Shown here in pieces: positions 29,401 to 58,060 of a stretch of DNA of 64,000 bases. The first letter of the stretch is position 1, and each line of letters starts with the position of its first letter. The notes beneath the pieces were generated by a model. That model was not told the DNA's origin and did not search any database. It saw only the letters and a program-made list of their open reading frames with translations. The DNA is from Capsulimonadaceae bacterium (GTDB taxonomy: Bacteria > Armatimonadota > Armatimonadia > Armatimonadales > Capsulimonadaceae), in the NCBI GenBank assembly GCA_965215505.1, contig OZ244065.1:3904001-3968000 (forward strand). The letters run 5' to 3'. The translations under genes were made by a program, and so were the position numbers.

Positions 29401-29615
29401 GGGACGGCGAGGGCTACCCGTTCGGCCTGCGCGGCGCGGAGATCCCCCTGACCGCCCGCCTGATGGCCGTCGCCGACGCCTACAGCGCGATGACGACCGA
29501 CCGCCCCTACCGCAAGGGCATGGACCCGGCCCGCGCGCGGCGCATCCTGGCCGAAGGCGCGGGGACGCAGTGGGACCCCGCCTGCGTCGCCGCGTTCCTG
29601 GGCGAAGGCGTCTGA
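26445..29615 (+). CDS. GAF-multi-PAS-GGDEF-HD-GYP protein
   Basis: N-terminal GAF (RFYAGAPL), four PAS/PAC-like repeats ending DVTE/DITE, GGDEF, LHDVGK...HHERWDGEGYP. Confidence 0.93.
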   Translation: MKTVLCPPAPANQPPFPANEEERLAALRRCALLDTPPEAAFDRPASLAARLFGVPLALVTLLDRDRLWLKSCQGQGRDSVGFREVSRDLSFCAHTVFAGEPLVFEDTRLDPRTAHNPFVTGERGVRFYAGAPLLDGEGHALGALCLLDFEPRLFPAEQRAALADLAAGVVSEIELRRASSALAESERLGRQMFEDSPQPMWVFDDKTLRFLAVNGAAVACYGYTRAEFLAMTLADIRQPEDVPALFEAEPALRPGDKLLRRHRKKDGALIWAEVAAHAVDYEGRAARMVVASDVTERVQAEDALRRSLTMMKAQQEAAPDGILVVDEHRRVISYNQRLCEMWGIPDVVRRAARYDGLLGHILSLVERPEEYAQRVRCLYEHPSERSHEEIELKDGRAFDRYSGPMVSEGGEYYGRVWFFRDITERRVMEQGLRRSERKRALHIRHTPLAAIEWGLDFEVTAWNPAAERIFGYTQDEAHGRRGPDLILPDAEQAAIEAVRVALLSGTGGARSTNLNRTKDGRTILCEWYNTPLVDDDGRVIGVAALAQDVTESRRAEAQLRESRQRYKSLVDYHPHTVCSIDTQGRFLTVNAAFEQLTGYAASEVCGRPFAPVVAPECLEQSRRHYALTLQGHPQRHELTLLHKTGRRVGACLTTVPIVVEGAVTGIYAVVEDVTERLALEAEREALLSQTEALLADALERADHDPLTGLMNHRAFHKRLEEQDEAAGREGRPLSLLLLDLCDFKFFNDAYGHLAGDDVLRRVAAALRSACRPGDTLARFGGDEFALLMPGASQPEAARAADALRAAVARVGYRPPGHDAAIPLSLSVGAASAPGDGAGRGALLGAADARLRVAQSGGDDEGQAMRLRRGLTRSVEGFSMLDALVAAVDNKDRYTRRHSEDVMEYSARIARALGMGASAQHAVQVAALLHDVGKIGVPDEILRKPGRLTDEEFAAVRQHPMMGAVIVGAVPGFEEALDAVRHHHERWDGEGYPFGLRGAEIPLTARLMAVADAYSAMTTDRPYRKGMDPARARRILAEGAGTQWDPACVAAFLGEGV

Positions 29616-30272: not shown

Positions 30273-30492
30273 CTGACTTTTTCACGAAATGCTTGACAAA
30301 CGATGGGGGCTTCCGCTACACTGTAGCATAGCAGAAATACCAAAGTGTCTGCCGCGCGTTGCAAAGGAGAACCATCCGATGACACGCACCGCGACAGGCA
30401 CGAACATTCGCCCCTGCCCCATTTCCGGCCCCGTCCGCCTTGCCGGTCTTTACTAAGTAAAGACCGGCGCGCTCCGATCCTGGCTGACCCTG

Positions 30493-32487
30493 ATGAGCCT
30501 CACCCTTTTTACCCTCGGCCTGCTCTGCGCCCGCTCCGCTCAGGCACAAGACGATTGGAACGTCACCGACAAAGACGGCAGCACCCTCCAAGTCTCCGGT
30601 GCCGGCTACCCCCTCACCGGCACCGCCACTGGCAAGGCCAAAAACACCTACCCCGCAGATATGACCTTCGTCGCCAAACTCGCGCCCTACTACGACTTGG
30701 AATACGGGTGGGTAGACAACAGCCAGTGGCTCCAGGCTGCCTCCGGCGGCCCCCACTCCTACGACCCCAACCCGCTCGGCGTCCCTTACCTTTACAACGA
30801 CGGGACCACCGGCCCGCCCTCGACCCTCATCGCGCTGAACGCCACCGCCCACAACTACGCCTTCAACAACAGCTACTATGGGTCCTTCAACCCCGAAGAC
30901 TACCCCTTTTACACATACCAGACGTACAAGGATGTGAGTGACTGTGAGCCGATCATCGGCAACGTGACCGGCAGGGCCAAAGGGACGCTGTGGGCGAACT
31001 GGAACTGGACGGGGTCCGGGGCGGCCCCGGACCACCTAGACATCTTGCTGACCACGAACGTGCAGGCGTCGAAGTCCTACGAGAACGGCTCGGAGGAGAC
31101 GGACCTGATCGCGACGGCGACAGCCTCGGACGGGGACCCGTTCAACGAGACGGCGAGTTCCGATGGCCCAGGAGGTAGGGAGCAGGCGGGTGGCCGCCAC
31201 CTGCTGCGTGTTCCAGTGTCAGGCGGGGTGGCGGCGGTGTCTTTGAACGGCAACGTGAGCGCCTCGGCGACCAACAACCTCCAGTACGGGGGGTTCAGCT
31301 ATCCCTACTATCAGATCTACGGCGGGCGTAACCCGACCGGTGCCCGCAGCTACGCCTCGGTTTCGGCTACCGCTATGGTAGACAGCCGGGACGTGACGAT
31401 TACCTCAGACATCGATCCAACCTATAAAAAAGGCAGAGTGGCGGATCGGGTAGGACATCCTGTTCAAGACCAGTGGGGCAATGACCTCTACGAGCCTGTC
31501 CAGAACAAGCTCGACGCGGATGGCACAGGGCATGGGGATGTGGGTCTGGCGGCTTCACCGCAGAGCGTAATGGTGCCAACGCCCTCCGACTCCTACCTGT
31601 ATGTTACCTACAAGGGCAACTATTCCGGTAGCTGGCACGTTTCCGGCCTCATGGAATGGTGGTATTCTGCCTTGACGGGTTCTTCAGCCGTTGGCACCCT
31701 CATTAACTCCTTCGACGAATCAGGCTTCGTCGTATCCTATGTTAGACCAAGCGATCCGCAAGTAATCGGCTATGACCCGTATGACGGGACCCCCCTCTAC
31801 TCCCAGGCGGTGCCGGGCAAAACCGGCACGGACCATGTTCACCTTACCTGTGAAGATGCTGCCCCCTATTCGGACTCTGGCGGTGATGGCGCTTTCGCGA
31901 CAGCCAACTATTACATGAACATGCATGACACGGAAGAAAATCCCTTCAAGTTCCGTGCTGATGAATACTATTGGCAGGATCTGCAACTGAATACGCCGGT
32001 TCCTACAGCTAATTTCAATCTCAATCCGACCGTCACCGTCTCAGCAAAAGATAATCCTGCCACCACTGGCGGGGCGCTGGGAATCAGCAGCTTATGGACG
32101 GTCGGCTTTAACGCAATGCCGGGATGGCTGCAAGGTATCTTAAAGGTTGCCGGCATTTCGGACGACAGCCTCAAGCCTGAGACGCTAACTTGGAGCGTCG
32201 GATTCAATGATGTATGGGACAACTCCAGCATAGATGGCGCGACGTGGCAAGGTGGCGTAAAACCGGCAGACAGCCAAAAGGCGTTTTGGCAAATGACGCC
32301 GCGTGTGCAGCGGTACTACATCCGCACTTGGACACGCTCGGATCATTATGTCATGCCTGGCGATGACTCCGGCTACACTGGTTTTGCAGGACAGGACCCT
32401 CAGCACTTCGAATCCAGATGCAACCAATCAGGCTCAGTGGGATTGCGCGGGTCTGGTGATTTCTCTCTGAACCCTCCCACTTCTTGA
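30493..32487 (+). CDS. Secreted hypothetical protein (664 aa), 5' end ambiguous
   Basis: Signal-peptide-like ...ARSAQA; Tyr/Trp/Gly/Thr-rich; an in-frame upstream RBS+ATG at 30379 is cut off by TAA 30454. Confidence 0.75.
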   Translation: MSLTLFTLGLLCARSAQAQDDWNVTDKDGSTLQVSGAGYPLTGTATGKAKNTYPADMTFVAKLAPYYDLEYGWVDNSQWLQAASGGPHSYDPNPLGVPYLYNDGTTGPPSTLIALNATAHNYAFNNSYYGSFNPEDYPFYTYQTYKDVSDCEPIIGNVTGRAKGTLWANWNWTGSGAAPDHLDILLTTNVQASKSYENGSEETDLIATATASDGDPFNETASSDGPGGREQAGGRHLLRVPVSGGVAAVSLNGNVSASATNNLQYGGFSYPYYQIYGGRNPTGARSYASVSATAMVDSRDVTITSDIDPTYKKGRVADRVGHPVQDQWGNDLYEPVQNKLDADGTGHGDVGLAASPQSVMVPTPSDSYLYVTYKGNYSGSWHVSGLMEWWYSALTGSSAVGTLINSFDESGFVVSYVRPSDPQVIGYDPYDGTPLYSQAVPGKTGTDHVHLTCEDAAPYSDSGGDGAFATANYYMNMHDTEENPFKFRADEYYWQDLQLNTPVPTANFNLNPTVTVSAKDNPATTGGALGISSLWTVGFNAMPGWLQGILKVAGISDDSLKPETLTWSVGFNDVWDNSSIDGATWQGGVKPADSQKAFWQMTPRVQRYYIRTWTRSDHYVMPGDDSGYTGFAGQDPQHFESRCNQSGSVGLRGSGDFSLNPPTS

Positions 32488-32509
32488 CTTCTACCGGAGG
32501 AGGCCTTGG

Positions 32510-33331
32510 ATGCGAACACCGGCCATCAGTCTTATTCTTCTGGCGTTCGTGGCTGGCTGTGGATTACATCATGCCTCCTCCCAGCAGTTTGTTCCGCGTC
32601 CTGTCTCACAGCCGGAAATAGAGGCCCGTCAGAACTTTGCTTGGTCAAGACTTCCGATCAACGGCGATGATACGCCTTACGCTCAGATCGCGTTACACAT
32701 TGACCAGGCGATCCGGTCTGGGGTTTCCCCGCAATCACTCCGCAGTCAATACGGCCTCCAGGCACAGCGACAGTCCGATAGCCCGCAAGCACAGTTTGCC
32801 TGGGCTTATGCTTCCTGGAAAGCTCTGCCTGCGGATTTTACCCTATCCGATAAAGCGGACATACTGGAAGGTGTTCCAGAAGCATTAGCCCATGCCACGT
32901 TTCCACGCGCATACCACTTCGCCCGCATCCGCTTCCTAGTAGAAGGCTCTGACTCGCGGATGTGGCCGCTCGGGGAGACGTTGTTGGCACATGATCCCAA
33001 TGACAAGGAGGTCAAGACAAATCTGATTAACTGCTACGGTGCTTTTTTGCTAGCTTCCAAACCGAGCGATGCCACTGTGCCGAAGATCAAGCAAAAGGCG
33101 CTTTCTTACGCGCAGGATATGCTGCGGTCTGACCCTCAAAAACCGAGATACCACGCCACTATTGGATGGGTTTACTTGATGTCATGGGCGGAAAAAAGCA
33201 ACCAGAACGACGGCCGGAACGCCATCAAGTACTTCCAAGAGTATCTGCGCCTCGCGCCTGCTAATGACAGTTGGCGCAGGCAGGCAGAGTCCTTCATCAA
33301 AATGATCCAGAGCCAGCAACAGTCAAAGTAA
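32510..33331 (+). CDS. Putative lipoprotein with TPR-like helical repeats
   Basis: GGAGG RBS; lipobox VAGC; C-terminal AIKYFQEYLRLAP. Confidence 0.75.
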   Translation: MRTPAISLILLAFVAGCGLHHASSQQFVPRPVSQPEIEARQNFAWSRLPINGDDTPYAQIALHIDQAIRSGVSPQSLRSQYGLQAQRQSDSPQAQFAWAYASWKALPADFTLSDKADILEGVPEALAHATFPRAYHFARIRFLVEGSDSRMWPLGETLLAHDPNDKEVKTNLINCYGAFLLASKPSDATVPKIKQKALSYAQDMLRSDPQKPRYHATIGWVYLMSWAEKSNQNDGRNAIKYFQEYLRLAPANDSWRRQAESFIKMIQSQQQSK

Positions 33332-33625
33332 GATTGGGTGCGAAACTGTACTTGTTACCAAACATGACGCCTCGTTTCAAGTTCAGCCAGCCGTTTGAGG
33401 AGCGACTAGCAAGGTACTGACCATCTTCAATTAAGGACAGGCACAAGCTGTCTGCCTTCTCCATTGCGCCTTCTCTGGGATGGCACTGCCGCCCTTGACC
33501 GAGTTTTCTGCTCCCTTCTGCCTATCTTAGTAGGACTGAGACTTTCCGCCGCCTTTGACGTGGGAGAAGCAGGCCCCCTATGTTTGGGGCCTGCGCTTCG
33601 TTAAAGAGGGAAACACTACAGCACG

Positions 33626-34609
33626 ATGAAGAATACGTCGGACCTCAAAATGCCTTCGGCGTCTTCACCTACCTTGGGCCTGGATCGTGAGGGGGCCAAC
33701 GATGATGAGGGCCGATCCGGTGAGAATCAACAAAAAAAGGCACTCGCGTTTGCGGCGGCAGTGGCTATGATCGTCACCTATTCCGCCGCAACGCAGCGGG
33801 CTTGGCTGACGGCGCTCGTGCCCATGGCGGCGGAAGCCGCCATCGACCCACTCGCTGCCGCGCGATACCAGGAATATGCGCCCAGTGACCCCGTAGGGGA
33901 GAAAACCATCGCTGAGAACGCATCCTCCTGGCGGCATGAGACATGGGGCGGCGACGACGGCCCTTATCAGAAAGCGCGCCGGGAGATTGATGCTGCTGTC
34001 GCTGCCGGCACATCCCCCATGCATCTTGCGCGCCAGTATGAAGCGCAAGCGGACCAGAACCCGAAGGCCCCTTTAGATCAATTCCGCTGGGGCTATGCCC
34101 TGTGGAGAACATTCACGCCGACTTCCACATCGGCTGAAAAGGGGACGAATAAACCAGGCGCTTTCTATTCACTGGCAAAGATCGAATCACCTAACACCTA
34201 CAACTACGCCCGCTTAAGGTATCTGCTCTCGTATCAGAGCGGCGACCTGACGGCGCTAGGTGAAAGGTTGATACAGCGGGATAACCAGGATGTGCAGGTC
34301 AAAGCCCATCTCGCTCTGGATTACACAACGCCTGGCTCGAAGCCGTACACCTTGGAGGTCAAACGCAGGGGCATCCAACTCTCGGAGGAGTTGATCCAGT
34401 CTGACCCAAAGTACCCTCAATATCACGCCATTCTCGCAGAAGAATACATAACGAGTTACTATGTAAATGGTCATCATCGCCAGGACGCTGCGGCTGCGGT
34501 CGTGGCGCTGAAGGAATACCTGACCCTGGCAAAGCCCAACGAGTTCTTCTATGAAGCGGCGAAAACCCGTGTCGCCACTTTGGAGCAGGAGTTAAATGGG
34601 GGTAAATAG
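33626..34609 (+). CDS. TPR-like protein, paralogue of 32510..33331
   Basis: Shared GDD.PY...ID.A...G.SP..L..QY..QA...P..QF.W.YA.W and EYL.LA motifs; start uncertain. Confidence 0.75.
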   Translation: MKNTSDLKMPSASSPTLGLDREGANDDEGRSGENQQKKALAFAAAVAMIVTYSAATQRAWLTALVPMAAEAAIDPLAAARYQEYAPSDPVGEKTIAENASSWRHETWGGDDGPYQKARREIDAAVAAGTSPMHLARQYEAQADQNPKAPLDQFRWGYALWRTFTPTSTSAEKGTNKPGAFYSLAKIESPNTYNYARLRYLLSYQSGDLTALGERLIQRDNQDVQVKAHLALDYTTPGSKPYTLEVKRRGIQLSEELIQSDPKYPQYHAILAEEYITSYYVNGHHRQDAAAAVVALKEYLTLAKPNEFFYEAAKTRVATLEQELNGGK

Positions 34610-34661
34610 GGCAGTCAATCTGGATGCCGACCAAATTGGAACTCGCGCCGCCCGTCCCCCA

Positions 34662-34687
34662 TGAAACTTTCCGCCGCCTTTGACGTA
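34662..34687 (+). promoter_or_regulatory. ECF-type promoter TGAAAC-N16-CGTA
   Basis: Same motif and spacing at 40053 before the paralogous gene. Confidence 0.65.
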
Positions 34688-34753
34688 TGAGAAGCAGCGC
34701 CCCATGCCTGGACCTGATTTTGGGGCCTGCGCTCTCGTCGAAAGGAACTGCGG

Positions 34754-36106
34754 TTGAAGTCTTTCCTGAAGTCTTTTCACTCCTACGCCCGGCTGATCCC
34801 GACCCTCGCCCTGGTCGGCCTGGCGGCCTGCGCCTTTGCCACCGGCGGGGCGAAGCCCGCACCGAAGGCATACCCGAAGGCCAGTGCGGTAGCACCGAGG
34901 GCGGTCACTTACGCCCACGACATCGCGCCGATTCTGTACCAGAACTGCACCACCTGTCACCGGGCGGGCGAGGTCGCGCCGTTCACCCTGTCCTCCTACG
35001 CGGACGCCAAAAAGCGCGCCCGGCAGATCGCGCTCGTCACCGACCAGCGCGTGATGCCGCCGTGGAAGGCCGACTCGCACGGGGAGTTCCAGGACGAGCG
35101 GCGGCTGACGGCCGCGCAGATCGCGCTGGTGAAGCGCTGGGTGGATGCGGGTGCCCCGGAAGGGAGCAAGGCGCAGGAGCCGCCCGCGCCGCAGTTCGCG
35201 GCGGGCTGGGCGCTGGGCAAGCCGGACCTGCTGGTCGCGCCCTCCGCGCCCTACACCGCGCCCGCCGAGGGGCGGGACGTCTACCGCTGCTACGTCATCC
35301 CCACCGACTTCGCCGAGGACCGCTACGTCTCCACCATCGATGTCCGCCCCGGCAACCGCGCCGTGGTGCATCACGCCATCGCCTATGTGGACACGGGCGG
35401 GGCCGCGCGCCGGTTGGCCGCGAAGTCGAGCGACGGCGGCCCCGGCTACCGGGAGTACGGCGGCATCGGCTTCCTGCCCGCCGGGATGCTCGGCGGCTGG
35501 GCGCCCGGCGCGATGCCCCACCCGCTGCCCGCCGACACGGGGATCGTCCTGCCGAAAGGCGCGGACATCGTGCTGGAGGTGCATTACCACCCGGACGGCA
35601 AGCCCGAAACCGATCTGACGCAGGTGGCGCTCTACTTCAACAAGGGGACCGTCGCGCGGCCTATGCACCTCTTCCCGCTCGCCAACCCGCGCCTGCACAT
35701 CCCCGCCGGCGACAAAGATTATGAGGTTCGGGCCTCGCTTCCCGTGGTCTTTGACGCCACCCTGCTGACGGTTTTCCCGCACATGCACGTCCTGGGGCGG
35801 CGGATGACCGTCACGGCGACCCTGCCCGACGGCACGACCAGATCACTTGTGGACGTGCCCGACTGGGACTTCAACTGGCAGGGGTTCTACGCCTACAAGC
35901 AGCCGGTCCGCCTGCCCGCCGGGTCGCACATTGATCTGGTCGCGCACTATGACAACTCGCCCGGCAACCCGCGCAACCCGAGCAGTCCGCCCAAGGACGT
36001 CACCTGGGGCGAGCAGACGACCGACGAGATGTGCCTGTGCTACCTCGGCTTCACGATCGACGCCGAACACGCCCCCAGGCAGGGGAAAACCGCCAGTTCG
36101 CGGTGA
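34754..36106 (+). CDS. Secreted cytochrome c / copper type II monooxygenase-like protein (paralogue 1)
   Basis: Signal peptide; CTTCH; VVHH, HYH, PHMH, WDFNWQ, DEMC; TTG start. Confidence 0.85.
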   Translation: MKSFLKSFHSYARLIPTLALVGLAACAFATGGAKPAPKAYPKASAVAPRAVTYAHDIAPILYQNCTTCHRAGEVAPFTLSSYADAKKRARQIALVTDQRVMPPWKADSHGEFQDERRLTAAQIALVKRWVDAGAPEGSKAQEPPAPQFAAGWALGKPDLLVAPSAPYTAPAEGRDVYRCYVIPTDFAEDRYVSTIDVRPGNRAVVHHAIAYVDTGGAARRLAAKSSDGGPGYREYGGIGFLPAGMLGGWAPGAMPHPLPADTGIVLPKGADIVLEVHYHPDGKPETDLTQVALYFNKGTVARPMHLFPLANPRLHIPAGDKDYEVRASLPVVFDATLLTVFPHMHVLGRRMTVTATLPDGTTRSLVDVPDWDFNWQGFYAYKQPVRLPAGSHIDLVAHYDNSPGNPRNPSSPPKDVTWGEQTTDEMCLCYLGFTIDAEHAPRQGKTASSR

Positions 36107-44187: not shown

Positions 44188-44481
44188 ATGACGATGGAAC
44201 AACTGCGCCAGGCACCCGCGCCGGGCCTGGGCCTGGACCCCGAAGACAGCGGAAATCTCGCCCCGACCAACCAGGACGCGCTCACCGAGGATCCCGACGA
44301 GGAACTGCCGGACGACGACTCGATGGACGGCCTGCCCGACGGCGACCGGCAGCTCACGACCGACAGCACGGCCTTGGATGGCGGCGGGGCGGGGGAGAGC
44401 GGGGATTACACCGGCGGCGGCACCAACGACAGCGACCTGGGCGCGGACGTGGCCGGCGACATCGGGCCAAAGCACGATTAG
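44188..44481 (+). CDS. Small, very acidic, probably disordered protein
   Basis: GAGG RBS; D/G-rich 97 aa. Confidence 0.7.
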   Translation: MTMEQLRQAPAPGLGLDPEDSGNLAPTNQDALTEDPDEELPDDDSMDGLPDGDRQLTTDSTALDGGGAGESGDYTGGGTNDSDLGADVAGDIGPKHD

Positions 44482-44622: not shown

Positions 44623-47600
44623 TCACAGCGGGCAGATCAGGCTGTACGCGCACGAACGGCATTCGTCGCCCGACTCGGGCCGGGCCGGGAACAGGCCGAG
44701 CTGGATGCCGCGTGCGGCCTTCTCGTATTTCGCCAGCCTGTCGCCCTCCCACTTCAACTCCTGCTTCTTCTCCGGCGGCGCGATGGCCTTGATGGTGCCG
44801 TCGGACAGGTAACGAAGCTCGACGCGGACCGGCGTGTCCGGGTGGGTCTGCGTGGCCGCGCGGCGGTACAGGGCGAGTTTCTTGTCCGTGTGGTCGCTGT
44901 CGCCGGGCCGGCCGGTGAGGTGGCGGGCGACGATCAGGGTTCCGTCCTCCGTGTCCCGGCGGATCACATCGGGCCGCACATGGACGTGGCAGTTTGACAG
45001 CGTCGCGCGCAGCGACTTGATCCCCGCCCGCTGCTCCGTTTCGGCCCCCAATGCCCCGCCCGCGCGCAGCATCCCCAGCGCGCTTTCTTTGTACTTCGCC
45101 TCGTGCAGATGCCCGACCGGGCCGTGTTCCGCCCAGATGGCCTCCAAACGCGCCTCGGCCTCCGCCGCCGTGGGCGGCTGCCCCGCTTCGCGCGCGTCTT
45201 CCAGCCAGTGCAGGGTCCGGCGGACGCAGGCGTGGAACTGCGGGTAGCCGTCCCCGCCGAACGCGCCGGGCAGCTTCAAGCTCTGTCCGTAGTGGTACTG
45301 GCGCGGGCAGCGCCCATACGTCTCCAGGGCCGACGACGAGTACTCCGGCAGGGCCTCGGGCGTCGGCGTTATTAGGTCGTCCGCCTCGGGCGCGGGCGCA
45401 CGCCCTGCCGGCCAGGCCGTCTCGGCGATGCCGCGCTCCTGCAAATGCGGCTGGATCAGGGCCAGCAGCGGGGAGGGCGCGACGGCCTTGTCGGCGGCGT
45501 TCCTCTCGGCCCGCGAAAGGACGATGTGGTCGCGGGCGCGGGACAGGGCGACGAAGAACAGGCAATGCTCCTCGTCCAGCTCCTCGCCCGCCGCGTCCGC
45601 CAGGCCCGGCGGGGTGGGGATGCCGTCGCTCCGGCCCCGCGTGGGGAACTGACCCGCGCCCAGGTTCGGCAGGAAGACGACCGGGTATTCCAGCCCCTTG
45701 GCGGCGTGGGCCGTCAGCAGGCGGACGGCGTCCAGCGCCTCGGCCTCGGGCGGCAGGCTCCCGCGCGGAGCGCCGCCGGACGCCTGAAGCCGGCGCAGGT
45801 GGGCCAGGAACGCGCGGACGCTGTTCGGCGACCCGTGCGGCGTCCGGGGCGCGACCAGGCGCTTGCCCGCGTCGGCGGCCATCCCCAGCAGTTGATGGAT
45901 CGCCAGGGTGCGGGCCAGCCGCGCCAGCTCGCGAGGCTCACCTGCCGTCAGGTGCCGCAGATAGTCGGACAGCCCGAACAAATAGTGCCGCAACAGGGCG
46001 GCCGGGTCGTTCTCCATCGTCTCCAGTTCGGCCAGGTGCGCCGCCAGTTTCGCCAAACCAGGGTGCAGGCCAGGCTCGCTTAACGCTTCCAGCAGCGGCG
46101 TCTCGGCCCGGCCCATCTGCGTCAGGAAGGCCAGCGCGTCCGCCTGCGGGACGGCGTATTCGGGGAACGCGGCCACGCGGATCAGCGCGGAGCCGTCGGG
46201 GTCGGCGAACAGGGCCAGCAGGCAGAGCAGGTCCTTGATCTCGGGCCGTTCCAGCAGCGCGCCCAGATAAAGGACGGGGATGTCGCGCGCCGCCAGCAGG
46301 CCCGCCAGCGCCTCCGCCTGGGCGTGTGACCGGCACAGGATGGCCTGGTGGCGGTGGTCACAGCCGGCGGCCTTCAGGTCTTTGACGGCCTGCGCGATGC
46401 CCTCCGCCTGCCCGACATCGTCGGGCGAGACGGCCAATGTGACGGCGGGGTGGGGCGGGTTTTCGTGCGTGCCACGGTGCGCGCGCCAGACGGAAACATC
46501 GGGAAGGACAGGAGGGTAGGACGGGAGAAGAGGGCGGGGGGACCCCGCCCCTACGCCATTCCCTGTAGGGGCGGGGTCCCCCCGCCCTTCTTTGTCCTGC
46601 CCGTCCTTGCCTGGTTCCATCATCCCGCTCGCCGCGCCGAACAGGTCCACGATGGGTGCCCGCGAGCGGTAGTTGACGCCAAGTTCCAGCCGCCGCCCCG
46701 TCGGGTAGTCCCGCTCGAAGGCGGCGACGTTGGCGGGGGAGGCCCCCTGGAACTGGTAGATGCTCTGCCGGTGGTCGCCGACCGCCCACAGGCCTTGGGC
46801 TTGTTCCCCGGCCAGCAGGCGGACCAGGCGGGCGCAGGCGCGGTTGACGTCCTGGTATTCGTCTGCCAGGACGTGTGGGTACTCGCCTTGCAGGTCCGCC
46901 AGGACGGCGGGGTGGCTTTCCAAAAGCTCCACCGTCCGCGAGATCAGGCCGCCGAAGTCCAGGAAGCCGCTCTCAGCCAGCAGGCGCTCGTAGACCGCGT
47001 AGCAGTGCGCGACCTCGGCCGCCTTCGCGGCCTGCGCTTGCCTCTTGGCGGCGTCTTCCAGCTTGCCTTTCAGGCCCTTGTCGCTGCCCGCCGCCTGCAC
47101 CTGCGCTTCCAGGGCGGCCATCGCGGCGTCGGCGGGGGCCTGCATCGCCGCGCAGAGTTCGGCGTAACGCGCCGGCGGGCAAAGCTCGTCCTTGGCCCGC
47201 CCGATCTGCCCTAAAATCCCGCCCAGGTGGATGGCCGGGTTATAGAGGTTGTCCAGCGCGTCCAGCTTCAGTTCGGCGAGATTGTTTTCCAGCAGCGTCA
47301 CGCCGTCCAGAGTGTTCAGCAGCTTGATGTCGCCGGTCAGCCCGATCTTTCCCCCGTAGCGGCGCAGCACTTCCAGGCCGAACGAGTGGAACGTCCCCAC
47401 CCACGGCCCGGCCTTCTCGGACCCGACGCCCGCCGCGACCAGGCGCTCCTTCATCTCCCCGGCGGCCTTGCGGGAGAAGGTGAGGGCCAATATCTGCGGG
47501 GCCGGAACACCCAACCGCTGAGTCAGGAATTGGCAGCGGCCCACCAGCGTCTTGGTCTTGCCCGTCCCCGGCCCGGCCCCGAGCAGCAGCGGGCCGCAGG

Positions 47601-48228
47601 AGATTTGCGCCGCCGCCTGCTGCGATTCGTCAAGCGTCACGTCGGCGGATGCGGGCGTCGGCGCTGCCTCTGTCACCCCGTCGCAGTGCGGCAGCAGGAG
47701 GGCGTCGGCGAGCTGCATCTGGACCATGCCGGTCGGCAGACCTAGTGCCTCGGCGATGGCCCCCGCCGACTGCCCTTCCTCGCTGAACAGGCTGCGGGCC
47801 AATGGGCTAGGCAACAGCATTTCGGCGGCGTAGACGTTCGCCTCGTTCTCGCGCCTCTGTTTGGGCGCGTAGCCCTCCACCTTGCTCATCGCGCCCGCCG
47901 TGGCCTCGGCGGTTTGGGACAGGTCGAGGTCGCCGGCCGTGCAGGAGATGGCCTCGGCGTGGAGCCAGAAGTGGGCGAACTCGTGTACGGCATCGAACGC
48001 CTGCATGGCGAAGGGCCGGGAGCCGTCCTGGTAGATGGCCGACATCTCGTGGTCCAGCACCGCCGAGGCCCCCGCCAGCAGGGCATCATCCGGCGTGAGG
48101 AAATGCCGCACGAGGCCCGTGGCATGGAGACACGCCTCCACCACCGACTGCGCCGGCAGGGCTTCCTCTACCAGCAGTCCTAATTCCAGCCGCCGCGCCC
48201 GCGCCTGCCGCCGTATTTCACTACTCAT
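44623..48228 (-). CDS. ImmA/IrrE-like metallopeptidase - UvrD/PcrA helicase - Fe-S PD-(D/E)xK-like fusion
   Basis: HEFAH and ENEANVYAAEMLLP; AGPGTGKT, LTFSRKAA, DEYQD, VGDHRQSIY, NYRS, TAHAAKGLE, VALSRA; C-terminal CP...CxxCxxxxxC. Confidence 0.9.
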   Translation of the reverse strand: MSSEIRRQARARRLELGLLVEEALPAQSVVEACLHATGLVRHFLTPDDALLAGASAVLDHEMSAIYQDGSRPFAMQAFDAVHEFAHFWLHAEAISCTAGDLDLSQTAEATAGAMSKVEGYAPKQRRENEANVYAAEMLLPSPLARSLFSEEGQSAGAIAEALGLPTGMVQMQLADALLLPHCDGVTEAAPTPASADVTLDESQQAAAQISCGPLLLGAGPGTGKTKTLVGRCQFLTQRLGVPAPQILALTFSRKAAGEMKERLVAAGVGSEKAGPWVGTFHSFGLEVLRRYGGKIGLTGDIKLLNTLDGVTLLENNLAELKLDALDNLYNPAIHLGGILGQIGRAKDELCPPARYAELCAAMQAPADAAMAALEAQVQAAGSDKGLKGKLEDAAKRQAQAAKAAEVAHCYAVYERLLAESGFLDFGGLISRTVELLESHPAVLADLQGEYPHVLADEYQDVNRACARLVRLLAGEQAQGLWAVGDHRQSIYQFQGASPANVAAFERDYPTGRRLELGVNYRSRAPIVDLFGAASGMMEPGKDGQDKEGRGDPAPTGNGVGAGSPRPLLPSYPPVLPDVSVWRAHRGTHENPPHPAVTLAVSPDDVGQAEGIAQAVKDLKAAGCDHRHQAILCRSHAQAEALAGLLAARDIPVLYLGALLERPEIKDLLCLLALFADPDGSALIRVAAFPEYAVPQADALAFLTQMGRAETPLLEALSEPGLHPGLAKLAAHLAELETMENDPAALLRHYLFGLSDYLRHLTAGEPRELARLARTLAIHQLLGMAADAGKRLVAPRTPHGSPNSVRAFLAHLRRLQASGGAPRGSLPPEAEALDAVRLLTAHAAKGLEYPVVFLPNLGAGQFPTRGRSDGIPTPPGLADAAGEELDEEHCLFFVALSRARDHIVLSRAERNAADKAVAPSPLLALIQPHLQERGIAETAWPAGRAPAPEADDLITPTPEALPEYSSSALETYGRCPRQYHYGQSLKLPGAFGGDGYPQFHACVRRTLHWLEDAREAGQPPTAAEAEARLEAIWAEHGPVGHLHEAKYKESALGMLRAGGALGAETEQRAGIKSLRATLSNCHVHVRPDVIRRDTEDGTLIVARHLTGRPGDSDHTDKKLALYRRAATQTHPDTPVRVELRYLSDGTIKAIAPPEKKQELKWEGDRLAKYEKAARGIQLGLFPARPESGDECRSCAYSLICPL
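46531..46588. repeat. REP doublet embedded in-frame in the helicase gene
   Basis: agggcggggggaccccgcccctac (identical to intergenic 49797-49820) plus inverted gtaggggcggggtccccccgccct. Confidence 0.85.
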
Positions 48229-48877
48229 CTCCGAGTGTCCCCTCGCTTTCTATTTCCACATGCCAATAGTCCCGGTCGGCCTGTGGCAGACCGCCGAGGA
48301 CATCCTCAAACTTTTGTCGTGGTCCCGACTCGCGCAGGACCGGTGCCTGCCTGGACTTATATTGCGCGCCCGATGCCAGCCGGGGGGGCAGCCGCAGGTA
48401 CGCCTCTACTTCGTCCGCCGAGCGGCCCAACGCCTGCGCGGCCCGCTTGGCCAGCGAGCGCGGGAGCGAGGCGGCGTCCAGCAGCCTCTGGTTCAGGCGG
48501 GAGAGGGCGAGCGTGTCCAGGCGCAGTGCTTGGGCGAACTCGCGGGCGGTCAGGCCGCGCGCCTTGGCCTCGTCCACCAGGCTGACCAGCGGCTTGGGCG
48601 GGGCGAAATGGCGGTCCAGGGCAGCCCGGCCCAGGGCAACGGTTTCGGGGTCCTCGGGGCCGCCTTCCAGCGGGTCGGTCAGCGACAGGCCCGCCGCGAA
48701 CCCGGCGAGGCTGACCTCCACCAGCGCGTCGGCGTGGGCCGGGTACTGCGCCGCCCACTCGCGCAGCAGAGTCCGGTCGCCGGGGGCAGCTTGGGACGCC
48801 TGCGCGTAGGCGAACAGGACGTCGTCCGCTTCCACTTCGGTCAGGCTGGGGTCATCGGGGACTGCTTTTTCGTTCAT
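48221..48877 (-). CDS. Hypothetical protein with a possible Xre-like HTH (candidate repressor/anti-sigma)
   Basis: Overlaps both neighbours; GLTAREFAQALRLDTLALSRL helix pattern. Confidence 0.75.
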   Translation of the reverse strand: MNEKAVPDDPSLTEVEADDVLFAYAQASQAAPGDRTLLREWAAQYPAHADALVEVSLAGFAAGLSLTDPLEGGPEDPETVALGRAALDRHFAPPKPLVSLVDEAKARGLTAREFAQALRLDTLALSRLNQRLLDAASLPRSLAKRAAQALGRSADEVEAYLRLPPRLASGAQYKSRQAPVLRESGPRQKFEDVLGGLPQADRDYWHVEIESEGTLGDE

Positions 48878-49599
48878 CGCGTGTCTTCATTCCAGAATGC
48901 CTGGGCGGTCTTCGCCCAGTTGCGGAGGGTGCGGTCGGTGACGCCGAGCCGCGTGCCGATCTCTCGATCCGTGAAGCCGTGCAGCCGCAGGTGGACCATC
49001 TCGGCGACGCGCGGGTGCCTCTGCGCCAGCCGCCGACAGAAGGCGGCGTCTTCTATCGCCGTGAAGGCGTTCACAGGGTCGGCGATCTGTGCCAGGCCGT
49101 CATGCTCCTCGCCGTCCGCGTCCATGCGCGCCAGCGAAACCGCGTCTTCGCGCCGCCGCCTCGCCGCCCTCCATGTGTTGATGAGGCACCGGTTGAAGCA
49201 GCCGGTGAAGTTGCACTCCCATAGCTCCTTGCCTGGCCCCAGGTCCAATGCAGCCTGCACGACCGCAATGATCGTCTCCTGCTTGGCGTCGGTCTTCTCT
49301 TCGGGTGTCAGGCCGGACCACGCCGCGACTCGCTTGGCGATGCTGTGGCTGACGCGCCGGACCAGGGCGTCCATGACGCGCCGGGAGGCGTCCGCGTCCC
49401 CCGCCTTTTGGTAAGCGCGGGCCATCGCGACCAGCGTTTCCCAGGTCAAGCCGTCCCCGCCCGCCCGCATCAGGGCCGCGTCACGGGACAGCCGCGCCAC
49501 CTCGGACAGCTCCCGGATGACGCCCTCGGGGCGCGTCCGCACTTGCAGCGGGCGCAGGAACTCGGCCCTGCCTTCGGCGTCCTCTGTGTCTCTACTCAT
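48874..49599 (-). CDS. ECF/sigma70-family sigma factor-like protein
   Basis: Region-2-like DAKQET...; region-4 HTH LHGFTDREIGTRLGVTDRTLRNW. Confidence 0.75.
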   Translation of the reverse strand: MSRDTEDAEGRAEFLRPLQVRTRPEGVIRELSEVARLSRDAALMRAGGDGLTWETLVAMARAYQKAGDADASRRVMDALVRRVSHSIAKRVAAWSGLTPEEKTDAKQETIIAVVQAALDLGPGKELWECNFTGCFNRCLINTWRAARRRREDAVSLARMDADGEEHDGLAQIADPVNAFTAIEDAAFCRRLAQRHPRVAEMVHLRLHGFTDREIGTRLGVTDRTLRNWAKTAQAFWNEDTR

Positions 49600-49711
49600 G
49601 GTGATTTCTTGAAAGCGGAAAACGATTTCCGCTTCTCGCGGAAAGGCGCGAGTGGGGAAGTGTCAGCACAGTATAACACAGGCGGGCGGGTTGAGGCAAA
49701 TGAGTAAGGAC

Positions 49712-49937: not shown

Positions 49938-51410
49938 ATGAAAGCCCAGTACATCGAAGACCTGACGCCCGGCGATGCCGTGGACGGCGAGTTCGTCCTC
50001 TCCCGGGCCGAGCGCGGCAAGAGGAAGAACGGCGAAGCCTTCCTGCGGGGCCAGCTCCAGGACCGCACCGGCACGGTGGCCGCCGTCGCCTGGACGCTCA
50101 CCGAGGGACAGATCGGGGCCGCGCTGGCGTCGCGCTATGTCCGCGTCCGGGGCACCGTCGGCCGGTACAAGGACGGGCGGCAGGTCACGATCACGTCGGC
50201 CCCGGAAGACATGGGCGAGCCGGAAGACCTCTCGGACTTCACGCGGGCCGCCGCCCTGCCCCGCGCCGAGCTGTGCCGCCGCCTCGACTCGCACCTGGAT
50301 ACGATCCAGAACCCATTTCTAAACGCCCTGCTGCGGGCCTTCTTCCATGACCCCAGGTTCCGCCGCCGATTCGACGAGGCCCCTGCCGCCATGGGCCTGC
50401 ACCACGCCTGCATGCACGGGCTGTTGCAGCACACGCTGGAGGTGACCGACCTCGCCGCCGCGATCGCCGACGTGCAGGGCCGCTGGGGCTACCCCGCCGT
50501 CTCGCGCGACGTGGTGGTCGGGGGCGCGCTGCTGCACGACATCGGCAAGGTCTATGAGCTTACCTGGGACGGCCCCGAGTATGGCTACACCCGCCGGGGG
50601 CAGCTCTACCAGCACATCATCCTCGGCTTCCAGATCGTCTCCAAGAAGATCCTCGGCATCCCCGGCTTCCCTCCCGACCTCACCGACGCCCTGTTGCACG
50701 GCATCCTGTCCCACCACGGCAAAGAAGAACACGGCTCGCCCGTTTCGCCCCAGATGCCGGAGGCGCAGATCGTCCACATGGCCGACGCCCTGGACGTCCA
50801 GCTTTTCTACATGATGGAGGCCCGCGCGGGCGCGGAGGGCGACACCGCCTGGCACCCGGCTTTGGAGGGCCGCGTCAAGACCGGAGGCCGGCGCGTTTAT
50901 TCGGGGTCGCTCGACTTCGCGCCGGACTTCTCGCGGCCCGAGCCGGCCCGCCTCCTCCCCGTCTTCCGCCTGGCCTCACGCGGCTCCGCGCCGGCCTTCG
51001 AAACCCGCCGCCTGCCTCTGCGCGGGCGGACGGCGGCCGGCCCGCCCGTTCTGGCCGATGACCGTGTGGAGGAGGAGCTTGATGTGGCGGCTGAGGGCCT
51101 GCCCACTGGCCCGGACCTGTTCCTGCTGCGAGTGGACGGCGAGAGCATGACCGGCGACGGCATCGCGGACGGCGACCTGATCGTCGTCCGCCCGCAGCAG
51201 CACCACGCGCCTGACGCCGTCCTCGTCTGCCTGCTGGACGACGACACGGTCACGATCAAGCGCGTGGAGCGGACGGCGTCCGGGGGCCTGCGCCTGCTGT
51301 CCTCTAACCCCGCGTTCGCCGCCATCCCCATCCCCATCGCCGACCCCGAACGCTTCCGGGTGCGCGGGCGCGTCCTGGGCGTCGCGCGCGGTGTCCCGGC
51401 GGTCCCTTGA
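49938..51410 (+). CDS. YhaM-like OB-fold/HD 3'-5' nuclease fused to a LexA-type S24 peptidase domain
   Basis: LQDRTG OB fold; HH...GLLQHT, LLHDIGK, SHHG, ADALD; then GRTAAGPP, LRVDGESM, VTIKR, VRGRV. Confidence 0.88.
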   Translation: MKAQYIEDLTPGDAVDGEFVLSRAERGKRKNGEAFLRGQLQDRTGTVAAVAWTLTEGQIGAALASRYVRVRGTVGRYKDGRQVTITSAPEDMGEPEDLSDFTRAAALPRAELCRRLDSHLDTIQNPFLNALLRAFFHDPRFRRRFDEAPAAMGLHHACMHGLLQHTLEVTDLAAAIADVQGRWGYPAVSRDVVVGGALLHDIGKVYELTWDGPEYGYTRRGQLYQHIILGFQIVSKKILGIPGFPPDLTDALLHGILSHHGKEEHGSPVSPQMPEAQIVHMADALDVQLFYMMEARAGAEGDTAWHPALEGRVKTGGRRVYSGSLDFAPDFSRPEPARLLPVFRLASRGSAPAFETRRLPLRGRTAAGPPVLADDRVEEELDVAAEGLPTGPDLFLLRVDGESMTGDGIADGDLIVVRPQQHHAPDAVLVCLLDDDTVTIKRVERTASGGLRLLSSNPAFAAIPIPIADPERFRVRGRVLGVARGVPAVP

Positions 51411-57949: not shown

Positions 57950-58060
57950 CGGTTTCTCCTGTTCCGTCGGGGCGTGCTGCTGTCCTACTCGCGGGGAACG
58001 CGCGGAACCGGAAAGCGCGCAGGAAAACCGCCCCCCCGTGAACAACTATCACGAACGCCC

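Follow-up and report, generated by a model that had tools for sequence, protein, structure and literature searches.

A sigma factor, a helix-turn-helix partner and a peptidase-helicase fusion encoded together in a Capsulimonadaceae bacterium: a conserved candidate for a DNA-triggered transcriptional switch

A three-gene series and the question it raises

Why should a sigma factor be encoded in one overlapping series with a small helix-turn-helix (HTH) protein and with a very large protein that joins a metallopeptidase to a DNA helicase? The question is raised by a 64,000-nucleotide (nt) stretch from a Capsulimonadaceae bacterium (assembly GCA_965215505.1, contig OZ244065.1, positions 3,904,001 to 3,968,000 of the forward strand), which was analyzed here as a whole and is called the window. 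A check of its open reading frames (ORFs) placed the three genes exactly where the first-pass annotation had put them, all on the minus strand and coupled in series, with the sigma gene overlapping the partner gene by 4 nt (48874-48877) and the partner gene overlapping the fusion gene by 8 nt (48221-48228). We refer to the three as the triad, to the middle protein of 218 amino acids (aa) as the partner and to the 1201-aa protein as the fusion. The answer that we think fairly probable, if far from assured, is that the triad is a DNA-triggered sigma/anti-sigma switch, in which a protease cuts an anti-sigma/HTH protein and so frees the sigma factor. The computational evidence partly supports such a model, with the helicase as the sensor, followed by the peptidase and by release of the sigma factor, and favors it because of a predicted anti-sigma-like interface, the loss of components together, an IrrE/CapP-like fold with an aligned cysteine, and a shared promoter-like motif.

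Conservation, loss and synteny in relatives

The triad is a real and old module. Orthologues of the fusion were found in 21/23 genomes of the same genus (absent from G003 and G018, partial in G010) and in 14/16 genomes of the sister family, the two without it being both genomes of genus g7; the family's only other genus had none. The order sigma-partner-fusion was kept in 14 of the 20 loci that were fetched, with the three genes adjacent in 13 and split by a 4.8-kb PSCyt/DUF1501 insert in one. Together with 13/13 plasmid loci (see below), this bears out the conservation of the neighborhood, a check that had been proposed for the triad. The remaining six loci had no detectable sigma and partner genes nearby, and five of these six genomes were searched whole for both. 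An adjacent sigma-partner pair is kept elsewhere in three of them; it is 15-16 kb off in G038 and in G026, whereas G030 has it on a different contig. The other two, G006 and G002, gave no match to the partner at E<=0.01 in the whole-genome profile search, and their best match to the sigma profile was at the level of a generic extracytoplasmic function (ECF) sigma factor (2.5e-5 to 3e-5, versus 1e-62 to 1e-80 in orthologue-bearing genomes). In these same two genomes the HExxH of the fusion has become HHFAH and 24 residues are missing, while its helicase and its four C-terminal cysteines remain. The peptidase site has thus decayed where the partner and the sigma factor were lost, which ties the peptidase to the partner. 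The flanks are syntenic within groups of congeners, and the downstream flank is common to the window and at least two other loci (L032 and L019), so the locus is chromosomal and, for the most part, vertically inherited.

Several variants were seen among the relatives. In genus g4, an opposite-strand PSCyt/PSD1 and DUF1501 pair lies just upstream of the helicase gene (L026, 5391-9712; L027, 5279-9672). In L026 this pair splits the helicase from the sigma-partner pair, and the part of L027 that was fetched showed no sigma-partner pair. The helicase ORF of L021 (2056-6423, minus strand) is open for 1455 aa, reaching ~390 aa upstream beyond the peptidase domain; this stretch could be an N-terminal extension or a mere open frame in GC-rich DNA. 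Two genomes of the sister family have a second M78-helicase paralogue (G030:C26:10615-15210 and G035:C87:9487-12798), and there is a sigma-like match beside the one in G030.

The fusion: a peptidase, a helicase and a RecB-like domain

The N-terminal part of the fusion is a member of the Peptidase_M78 family (PF06114, residues 75-173, 2.5e-07, 31 bits against a cut-off of 22) and carries the signature of that family, an HExxH motif with a downstream glutamate zinc ligand in an E-x-x-A-N...LLP helix. In the alignment of 21 fusion orthologues (A1), H82, H86, E129, A130 and E136 are invariant, and conservation is at least 90% at E83, N131 and C96. A search with a profile built from residues 1-200 matched the solved structures of CapP (7t5t, 0.0025) and IrrE (3dte, 0.0079). 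The AlphaFold2 (AF2) model of the peptidase domain had a predicted local distance difference test (pLDDT) score of 83.7, and its 10 best Foldseek matches were all IrrE/PprI or a related regulator of Mycobacterium tuberculosis (E of 1.2e-04 to 3.2e-03, template modeling score normalized to the query [TM(query)] of 0.50-0.58). The IrrE/PprI matches (1.2e-04 to 1.1e-03) include the complex of PprI with single-stranded DNA (ssDNA; 8sln). The zincin domain that the first-pass annotation had read from HEFAH and the downstream glutamate motif is therefore confirmed, with an IrrE/PprI/CapP-like fold. The family also has a cysteine loop, the cysteine of which (C96 in the window) aligns with a cysteine of CapP 7t5t in the profile alignment; the loop was modeled at a pLDDT of <50. 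In the sections available of the preprint by Lau et al. (2022), C113 is the cysteine-switch residue of CapP, and the cleavage site of CapH is mapped to F82|R83. By position count (13 residues past the second histidine of HExxH), we take the CapP cysteine that aligns with C96 to be this C113. No match to the C-terminal GAF sensor of CapP was found in the fusion by Pfam, which gave instead a UvrD helicase past residue ~196. The fusion thus looks like a CapP or IrrE protein in which the GAF sensor has been swapped for a DNA motor.

The motor is a complete superfamily 1A (SF1A) helicase, as had been proposed. Pfam found UvrD-helicase (2.7e-58) and UvrD_C (1.1e-25), and the profile search of the PDB matched PcrA at 6.8e-107, as well as AdnA and AdnB over the helicase and the C-terminal domain together (214-1069 with AdnA). 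Walker A, DExQD and motifs III to VI are intact in the invariant columns of the alignment; GPGTGKT, DEYQD, VGDxRQSIYxFRGA and NYRS are the same in 21/21 fusion sequences. Behind the helicase, Pfam PDDEXK_1 (4.3e-13) covers its entire model at residues 963-1200, and no solved relative was found by sequence with this domain alone. Four cysteines (C974, C1190, C1193 and C1199) are invariant in the 21 orthologues, the last three within CRSCAYSLIC (1190-1199). RecB-family nucleases carry hh(D/E)xK at motif III; here motif III is devoid of the acidic residue and of the lysine in 17/17 aligned members, plasmids included, and reads IVARHLTG in the family of the window and xxRRVRTG in the sister family and the plasmid members. 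Of the AddB-like C terminus that was first suggested, the fold and the four cysteines therefore hold, and the catalytic (D/E)xK does not, being replaced. Judging from these residues, the domain is probably not a nuclease and most likely binds an iron-sulfur (Fe-S) cluster and DNA without cutting it. A dead nuclease motif with the four cysteines kept fits a sensor rather than a degrader of DNA.

The partner and its predicted complex with the sigma factor

The partner belongs to a large family of small proteins, with 1452 representatives at E<=1e-3 and 915 at 1e-10, nearly all of them of 190-240 aa. It had no Pfam, PADLOC or NCBIfam family (the Pfam Xre-like HTH was merely subthreshold, at 0.035), its profile found no solved relative by sequence, and Foldseek gave nothing at E<=1e-3. 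The AF2 model (pLDDT of 84) has N-terminal helices at 14-61 and 77-91, a central bundle at 100-161 with a pLDDT of 96-98, a linker at 164-179 with a low pLDDT and C-terminal helices past it. The weak Foldseek matches of this model are consistently to Xre HTH proteins (HigA, the N-terminal domain of CapH [7t5u], SinR and C.AhdI) over 58-68 residues with a root mean square deviation of ~2-2.5 Å, the CapH domain reaching a TM(target) of 0.74, and the nearest Atlas clusters carry HTH_31. These matches are weak and agree with each other in suggesting an Xre-type HTH fold for the center of the partner. There is no cysteine in the protein, and therefore no HxxxCxxC motif of the zinc anti-sigma (ZAS) kind. 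The linker motif is kept in 15/15 orthologues and is recognizable in the seven plasmid homologues displayed; within it, Y173-K174 may be the scissile bond, by analogy with F82|R83 of CapH.

The sigma factor matched Sigma70_ECF in Pfam (PF07638, 2.2e-06, 28.1 bits against a cut-off of 21.1). Its profile (A3) aligns almost end to end with solved ECF sigma factors, i.e., SigE (2.9e-04) and Escherichia coli sigmaE (1or7, 7.8e-04, 78-245 with 22-186), with regions 2 and 4 recognizable. The score with NCBIfam TIGR02937 is below the cut-off (22.9 versus 42.9), indicating a divergent ECF member. Conserved motifs are an E(F/L)WEC(N)F box at 125-131 and the region 4 HTH GVTxRTLRNW at 219-228.

Co-folding of the sigma factor with the partner, another of the checks proposed at the start, gave a complex in silico with an interface score (ipSAE) of 0.80 in 3/3 runs, the best of three controls being at 0.34. 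In the benchmark of this procedure, the mark was reached by 58/80 solved complexes and by 2/110 mismatched pairs. The runs share at least 95% of their contacts, with a pLDDT of at least 81 for the partner, and the interface joins residues 13-91 of the partner to residues 69-147 and 185-217 of the sigma factor (regions 2 and 4). Spanning both of these regions is also the binding mode of class I anti-sigma domains. The N-terminal domain of the partner is thus predicted, from the modeled complex, to bind the sigma factor through an anti-sigma-like interface.

Plasmid relatives and Bub operons

Relatives of the fusion are not confined to chromosomes. In a tblastn search of PLSDB, 81 records covered at least 80% of it at ~31-35% identity (1667 records had any match), mostly from Hyphomicrobiales and Rhodobacterales, with some from Pseudomonas, Robbsia and Klebsiella. 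We examined 13 of the 25 plasmid rows listed, a nonrandom choice (H1, H2, H4-H10, H12, H16, H17 and H21). In 13/13 of these loci, a gene for 162-294 aa is followed by one for 170-221 aa and then by the helicase. The middle proteins match the partner profile (A2) in all 13 (1.5e-29 to 7.5e-08), and the first proteins match sigma profile A3 in 10/13, the misses being L035, L039 and L061. Directly downstream and on the same strand, 11/13 loci have an E1/ThiF-like operon (by annotation, Pfam and blastp), which includes a multiubiquitin gene with DUF6527 or a JAB/MPN gene. In L039 the operon is divergently upstream, and in L034 an IS66 element stands downstream in its place. By the descriptions from the Corbett laboratory, in the sections available, these are ubiquitination-like operons of the Bub type. 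Direct adjacency to a Bub-type operon was thus seen in 12/13 plasmid relatives and not in the window, where the flanks are a redoxin-like gene and a gene combining an OB-fold, an HD domain and Peptidase_S24 (OB-HD-S24). The triad had been put forward as a candidate for defense. The link to defense comes from the plasmid relatives, which adjoin Bub operons; the triad of the window is a syntenic chromosomal module and not part of a mobile defense island.

A promoter-like motif and candidate targets

TTTCCG is found on the coding strand just upstream of the sigma gene in 14/15 loci, and L013 carries TTCCGGTT. In seven loci of the same genus, it stands 22 nt before the annotated ATG and is followed at fixed spacing by ATGAGT(A/C). 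In L014, the copy at the same spacing, ATGAGTAAG, is not in frame and leads to a stop codon; what is conserved is therefore the DNA element and not a start codon. As far as the letters go, the pair looks like the -35 and -10 boxes of an autoregulated ECF promoter. Elements of the TGnTA(T/A)nnT type also occur upstream of the sigma gene in 8/15 loci by pattern match, with further TATAAT-like elements in L014, L022, L025 and L026 that were spotted by eye only. Among the 15 loci, an inverted repeat like that of the window was seen only in L019. On the plasmids, the spacer between the helicase and the Bub operon has TT(T/A)CCGG(N)TT followed, 13-14 nt later, by CGAT(T/C)(A/G) in 9/13 loci, including the operon-less L034, and the same bipartite element occurs ~40-90 nt upstream of the sigma gene in 4/13.

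A scan of genome G000 for TTCCGS-N16-18-YGAGT gave 53 matches, against 24-37 at six control spacings. The best intergenic match is upstream of recJ, 36-37 nt from its ATG. This motif was found before recJ in 6/6 triad-bearing congeners (G000 and five others), four with TTTCCGCTTT (TTTCCGC) and two with GTTCCGCTTT (GTTCCGC), and these promoters carry (C)GAGTA at the same spacing as the -10 of the sigma gene. Within 200 nt upstream of recJ it was found in neither G006 nor G002, the two genomes that have lost the sigma factor and the partner. Within the genus, the motif therefore travels with the sigma factor.

Other matches were noted in G000. Three of them (652702, plus strand; 4159176, plus strand; 2216638, minus strand) precede genes that we take to encode a DUF488-like protein, a 1075-aa PLD-helicase-like protein and a DUF1016/PDDEXK-like protein, which could be in the same regulon as the sigma factor. 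In the window itself, a bipartite match (TTTCCGGTTCC...CGAGTAGG, ~57985-58013, minus strand) lies 64 nt before a 105-aa ORF, which overlaps the end of a DUF1559 gene on the opposite strand and may be spurious. A genome scan with a position weight matrix of the single box was set aside, as its 102 matches (~37 expected) had no coherent set of downstream genes. Outside the window, G000 has three LexA paralogues above the curated cut-off (483472-484080, 1658128-1658742 and 4951723-4952361); the triad would be an additional circuit and not a replacement of the SOS system.

Proposed mechanism and alternative explanations

The switch could operate as follows. At rest, the partner would hold the ECF-like sigma factor through its N-terminal helical domain. 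The fusion would act as the sensor, its UvrD/PcrA-type motor and its dead Fe-S RecB-like domain engaging abnormal DNA, for which the candidate signals are ssDNA, ends or gaps that come from damage or from invading DNA. This engagement would release the latent M78 peptidase, a cysteine-switch enzyme of the IrrE/CapP type, which would then cut the partner, probably at Y173-K174 in the linker between the Xre-HTH-like domain and the C-terminal helices. The freed sigma factor would direct RNA polymerase to promoters of the form TTTCCGG(N)TT-N13-14-(C)GA(G/T)T(A/C), those of its own operon, of recJ in the genus and of Bub operons on proteobacterial plasmids. We infer the cleavage and its site, the DNA signal, the dependence on ATP, the motif as the promoter of this sigma factor and the regulon. 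A wider proposal holds that an ATP-driven SF1 helicase with a nuclease-dead Fe-S domain licenses, by physical means, an M78 protease of the cysteine-switch kind to destroy a hybrid anti-sigma/HTH protein, that mobile versions of the module drive Bub operons on proteobacterial plasmids and that an entire bacterial order has domesticated it as a LexA-independent repair circuit including recJ. Taken whole, we regard this as possible, with a slight lean towards doubt.

A number of observations weigh against the sigma-release model. No sequence similarity to known anti-sigma domains could be detected in the partner, which also has no zinc-binding cysteines and whose HTH would be superfluous if it were purely an anti-sigma factor. 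The co-fold was run on alignments supplied by the analyst and may pass by likeness to solved sigma/anti-sigma complexes, which are well represented among structures. G006 and G002 share their upstream synteny, so the loss in both may be a single evolutionary event. In this genus, the candidate -10 box overlaps the annotated ATG of the sigma gene, which would put the start of its transcript within the annotated ORF; therefore, the assignment of either the start codon or the promoter must be wrong. Either the true start codon of the sigma factor is further downstream, or a messenger from the upstream TGTGTTATACT element supplies the annotated start. With the pattern used, the box was upstream of the sigma gene in only 4/13 plasmids, and 4/13 lacked it ahead of the next gene. 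The excess of the motif across genome G000 is modest, 5 of the 53 matches being one repeated coding motif, and a looser bipartite pattern had no excess genome-wide (120 versus 95-115). The recJ motif was found in none of three sister-family genomes that have the triad, which implies that the regulon differs between families. There is no target operon beside the triad within the window. Finally, the available sections of the Bub preprint state that protection of E. coli from phage has so far been seen with no Bub operon, and this makes the label of defense an indirect one.

The chief rival follows the logic of CapH and CapP. The partner would be mainly an Xre repressor acting on TTTCCG or the inverted repeat, the peptidase would cleave it after damage, and derepression of a housekeeping-type promoter would raise the sigma factor and the helicase, the former as a downstream amplifier. 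It is compatible with the anti-sigma reading, since the partner could do both, and we judge it unlikely, though well short of negligible. The Xre-HTH fold of the partner speaks for it, as do the perfect GCGGAAA-N4-TTTCCGC of the window, with a similar repeat in L019, and the operator-like position of TTTCCG, 2-6 nt after a TATAAT-like element, in L014, L015, L025 and the recJ promoter of G000. CapH is itself a repressor cleaved by CapP, and 24 CBASS (cyclic oligonucleotide-based antiphage signaling systems) are said, in the sections available of Lau et al., to have capH and capP together with a sigma70-family sigma factor. Nevertheless, CGAT(T/C)(A/G) or GAGTA comes after the box at a constant distance, as a -10 comes after a -35, and on plasmids the box stands ahead of Bub operons with no obvious TATAAT. 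Most of the 15 loci showed no such inverted repeat, and the co-fold puts the N-terminal domain of the partner on the sigma factor; these points weigh against the repressor reading.

The other alternatives give the helicase a life of its own. It could be a stand-alone defense effector acting on phage or plasmid DNA, like GajB of Gabija or Nhi, with the sigma factor and the partner only setting its level. The plasmid relatives do lie among defense-type genes (Bub, AbiEii, SbcCD-like and methylase genes), and the PADLOC models of GajB match the helicase core (best 2.7e-63). However, these matches are generic to the UvrD core, the sigma factor and the partner had none, and PADLOC, which had been named with DefenseFinder as a first check of the triad, gave no system-level match at all. 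Besides, no GajA-like gene (OLD/TOPRIM) is adjacent, the nuclease motif has degenerated, the locus sits in the chromosome and keeps its synteny in the genus, and the full-length fusion was found in 0/50,697 phage records. The peptidase would be left without a role, yet its co-loss ties it to the partner. We thus consider a stand-alone effector improbable, and even less credit is due to an ordinary repair helicase-nuclease of the AdnAB/AddAB kind that happens to stand beside unrelated regulators. The profile does align with AdnA and AdnB over the helicase and the C-terminal domain, and NCBIfam lists PcrA, Rep, UvrD and AddA, but all of them are far below their cut-offs (PcrA at 269 versus 911.2 bits), and we find a single subunit with a dead nuclease motif, encoded by genes that overlap, whose order is kept across two phyla and whose peptidase decays when its partners are lost. 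UvrD/PcrA and HelD bind RNA polymerase, and the helicase might accordingly monitor stalled polymerase while the protease resets the availability of the sigma factor. The points in favor of such a transcription-coupled sensor are only the PcrA/UvrD family resemblance and the sigma gene in the operon; HelR of NCBIfam scores merely 0.0051 (15 bits against a cut-off of 750), and a RecB-like domain follows the helicase, so that we find this the hardest of all to credit.

Relation to known systems and significance

We class the triad with the protease-gated HTH/sigma switches, and it is not categorically new. A full-text search of the literature, outside the supplementary tables of the papers on Bub and CapH/CapP, turned up no account of an M78-helicase with a sigma factor and an anti-sigma/HTH protein. 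Some of the "CapH+CapP" entries in those tables may be the helicase-fused form. The word "helicase" is absent from the main text of the CapK/CapS paper (PMC13373217), and there is no mention of a helicase or of a sigma factor in the available sections of two Bub preprints. The first-pass annotation knew of no named system with this architecture; none is described in the literature searched, and what is not new is the company of a sigma factor with CapH and CapP, to which the preprint of Lau et al. (2022), in the sections available, devotes one sentence.

That pair is the nearest known relative. As in the triad, the gene for an Xre-HTH protein directly precedes that for an IrrE-type M78 peptidase, which has an HTH-like linker, a cysteine of CapP aligns with C96 of the fusion, and the plasmid form of the module is next to immune-type (Bub) operons. 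The differences are considerable. CapP has a GAF sensor, and the fusion has instead ~1000 aa of SF1 helicase and Fe-S RecB-like domain; the partner has an additional N-terminal domain predicted to bind the sigma factor; the sigma factor is a fixed part of the triad, with a predicted output of sigma release and not of lost repression; and in the lineage of the window the triad is chromosomal, with no adjacent immune operon. The order of an HTH gene followed by an M78 gene matches ImmR/ImmA-type pairs. In the IrrE/PprI-DdrO pair of Deinococcus and the ImmA-ImmR pair of ICEBs1 and phages, DNA damage leads an M78 metallopeptidase to cleave an HTH regulator. The triad shares with them the peptidase and an HTH protein, and IrrE/PprI are the best structural matches of the N-terminal domain of the fusion, but theirs are separate small proteins, with no helicase, sigma factor or anti-sigma-like domain.

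On the transcriptional side, ECF sigma/anti-sigma pairs of the RseA type are under regulated proteolysis by membrane site-1 and site-2 proteases. The co-transcription of the sigma factor with its predicted binder, the modeled interface over regions 2 and 4 and the likely autoregulated promoter are common to both. Unlike RseA, the partner is cytoplasmic, free of cysteine, bears an Xre HTH and matches no known anti-sigma family, and the proposed protease is a fusion with a DNA motor. On the DNA side, AdnAB and AddAB also have a UvrD-like motor followed by a RecB-like domain. The four-cysteine pattern of AddB and Cas4 is C...CxxCx5C, and the cysteines of the fusion match it. Here, however, there is a single polypeptide with an N-terminal peptidase and a motif III without the acidic residue and lysine. 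Gabija pairs GajB with GajA; the neighbors of the helicase gene here are the genes for the sigma factor, the HTH protein, the redoxin and the OB-HD-S24 protein.

DNA-damage-responsive controllers of adjacent immune operons have been described in papers of 2024-2026, as far as the sections available go, for CapW/BrxR, CapH+CapP and CapK+CapS, and CapH+CapP is restated as a controller of adjacent pathways in PMC13373217. CapW/BrxR and CapK+CapS have, by the same sources, the same genomic position beside Bub or other immune operons and respond to DNA damage; they are unrelated in family and chemistry, the former being a WYL ligand sensor and the latter a kinase/STAS pair. The trigger of the Bub operons and their biological role are still open, according to the available sections of the Bub preprint. 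If the sigma-release model is true, DNA surveillance would be coupled to transcription by a motor protein and proteolysis of an anti-sigma factor, in contrast to the routes through RecA-LexA, the WYL ligand sensor, the GAF-gated protease and the kinase, and Bub operons would gain a regulatory handle with a defined promoter. The triad also offers a compact and apparently orthogonal set of sigma factor, anti-sigma factor, protease and promoter for synthetic reporters of DNA damage or of invader DNA. It is a clear case of one module that is both plasmid cargo and a vertically inherited chromosomal circuit.

Coordinates and genomic surroundings

The features of the triad and of its upstream region are collected in Table 1.

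Table 1. Positions in the window of the triad genes, their domains and motifs, and the candidate promoter elements
Feature	Position	Strand	Description
Sigma gene	48874-49599	-	241 aa, ECF-like sigma factor with ~70-aa N-terminal extension
Partner gene	48221-48877	-	218 aa; predicted hybrid of anti-sigma domain and Xre-type HTH
Partner N-terminal domain	48605-48841	-	Residues 13-91, helical; predicted contact to sigma regions 2 and 4
Xre-type HTH fold	48395-48586	-	Partner residues 98-161, five helices
Exposed conserved linker PPRLASGAQYKSRQAP	48341-48388	-	Partner residues 164-179
Aromatic-basic pair Y173-K174	48356-48361	-	Candidate scissile site in the partner
Fusion gene	44623-48228	-	1201 aa: M78 peptidase, HTH-like linker, SF1A helicase, RecB-like four-Cys domain
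Peptidase and HTH-like linker	47689-48228	-	Fusion residues 1-180, IrrE/PprI/CapP-type
HEFAH	47971-47985	-	Fusion residues 82-86
Cys96 loop	47929-47946	-	Fusion
ENEANVYAAEMLLP	47809-47850	-	Fusion residues 127-140
UvrD/PcrA-like helicase	45499-47643	-	Fusion residues ~196-910, motifs intact
Walker A GAGPGTGKT	47554-47580	-	Fusion residues 217-225
DEYQD	46849-46863	-	Fusion residues 456-460
RecB/AddB-like PD-(D/E)xK domain	44626-45366	-	Fusion residues 955-1201, four Cys kept
Degenerate motif III IVARHLTG	44911-44934	-	C-terminal domain of the fusion
Candidate -35 box TTTTCCGCTTTC	49611-49622	-	TTTCCG starts 22 nt upstream of the annotated sigma ATG
Candidate -10 box ATGAGTA	49593-49599	-	Overlaps the annotated sigma start codon
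Extended -10-like element TGTGTTATACT	49670-49680	-	Possible housekeeping-sigma promoter, by resemblance to the consensus only
7-nt perfect inverted repeat GCGGAAA-TCGT-TTTCCGC	49615-49632	-	Overlaps the -35 box; possible HTH operator

A redoxin-like gene, convergent to the triad, and a small acidic ORF lie downstream of it, and upstream, divergent from it, is the OB-HD-S24 gene. In the 20 related loci, the redoxin-like and OB-HD-S24 genes never adjoin the triad, and the small acidic ORF does recur. The OB-HD-S24 gene (49938-51410, plus strand) encodes 490 aa, its Peptidase_S24 part being LexA-like, and a reverse-oriented TTTCCGC...CGAGT copy at ~49626-49655 points towards it. It was dropped as a fourth component, as it is adjacent to the triad in 0/20 related loci. 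The small acidic ORF (44188-44481, plus strand) is convergent to the helicase gene and encodes 97 aa with no Pfam family; it is kept, at 51-65% identity, downstream of the helicase in six loci of the same genus, including both that have lost the sigma factor and the partner.

The organism has GC-rich DNA, and its genes, like those of its relatives (DUF1559/N-methyl, PSCyt and DUF1501), are of the sort typical of Planctomycetota-like or Armatimonadota-like lineages. Further away in the window, the GC content falls to 0.55-0.64 at ~30300-35800, versus ~0.69 elsewhere. Four ORFs of 273-664 aa in this stretch are without a Pfam family, and it may be foreign DNA. At 26445-29615 (plus strand), there is a gene for a 1056-aa signaling protein with a GAF domain, four PAS domains, a GGDEF domain and an HD-type domain.

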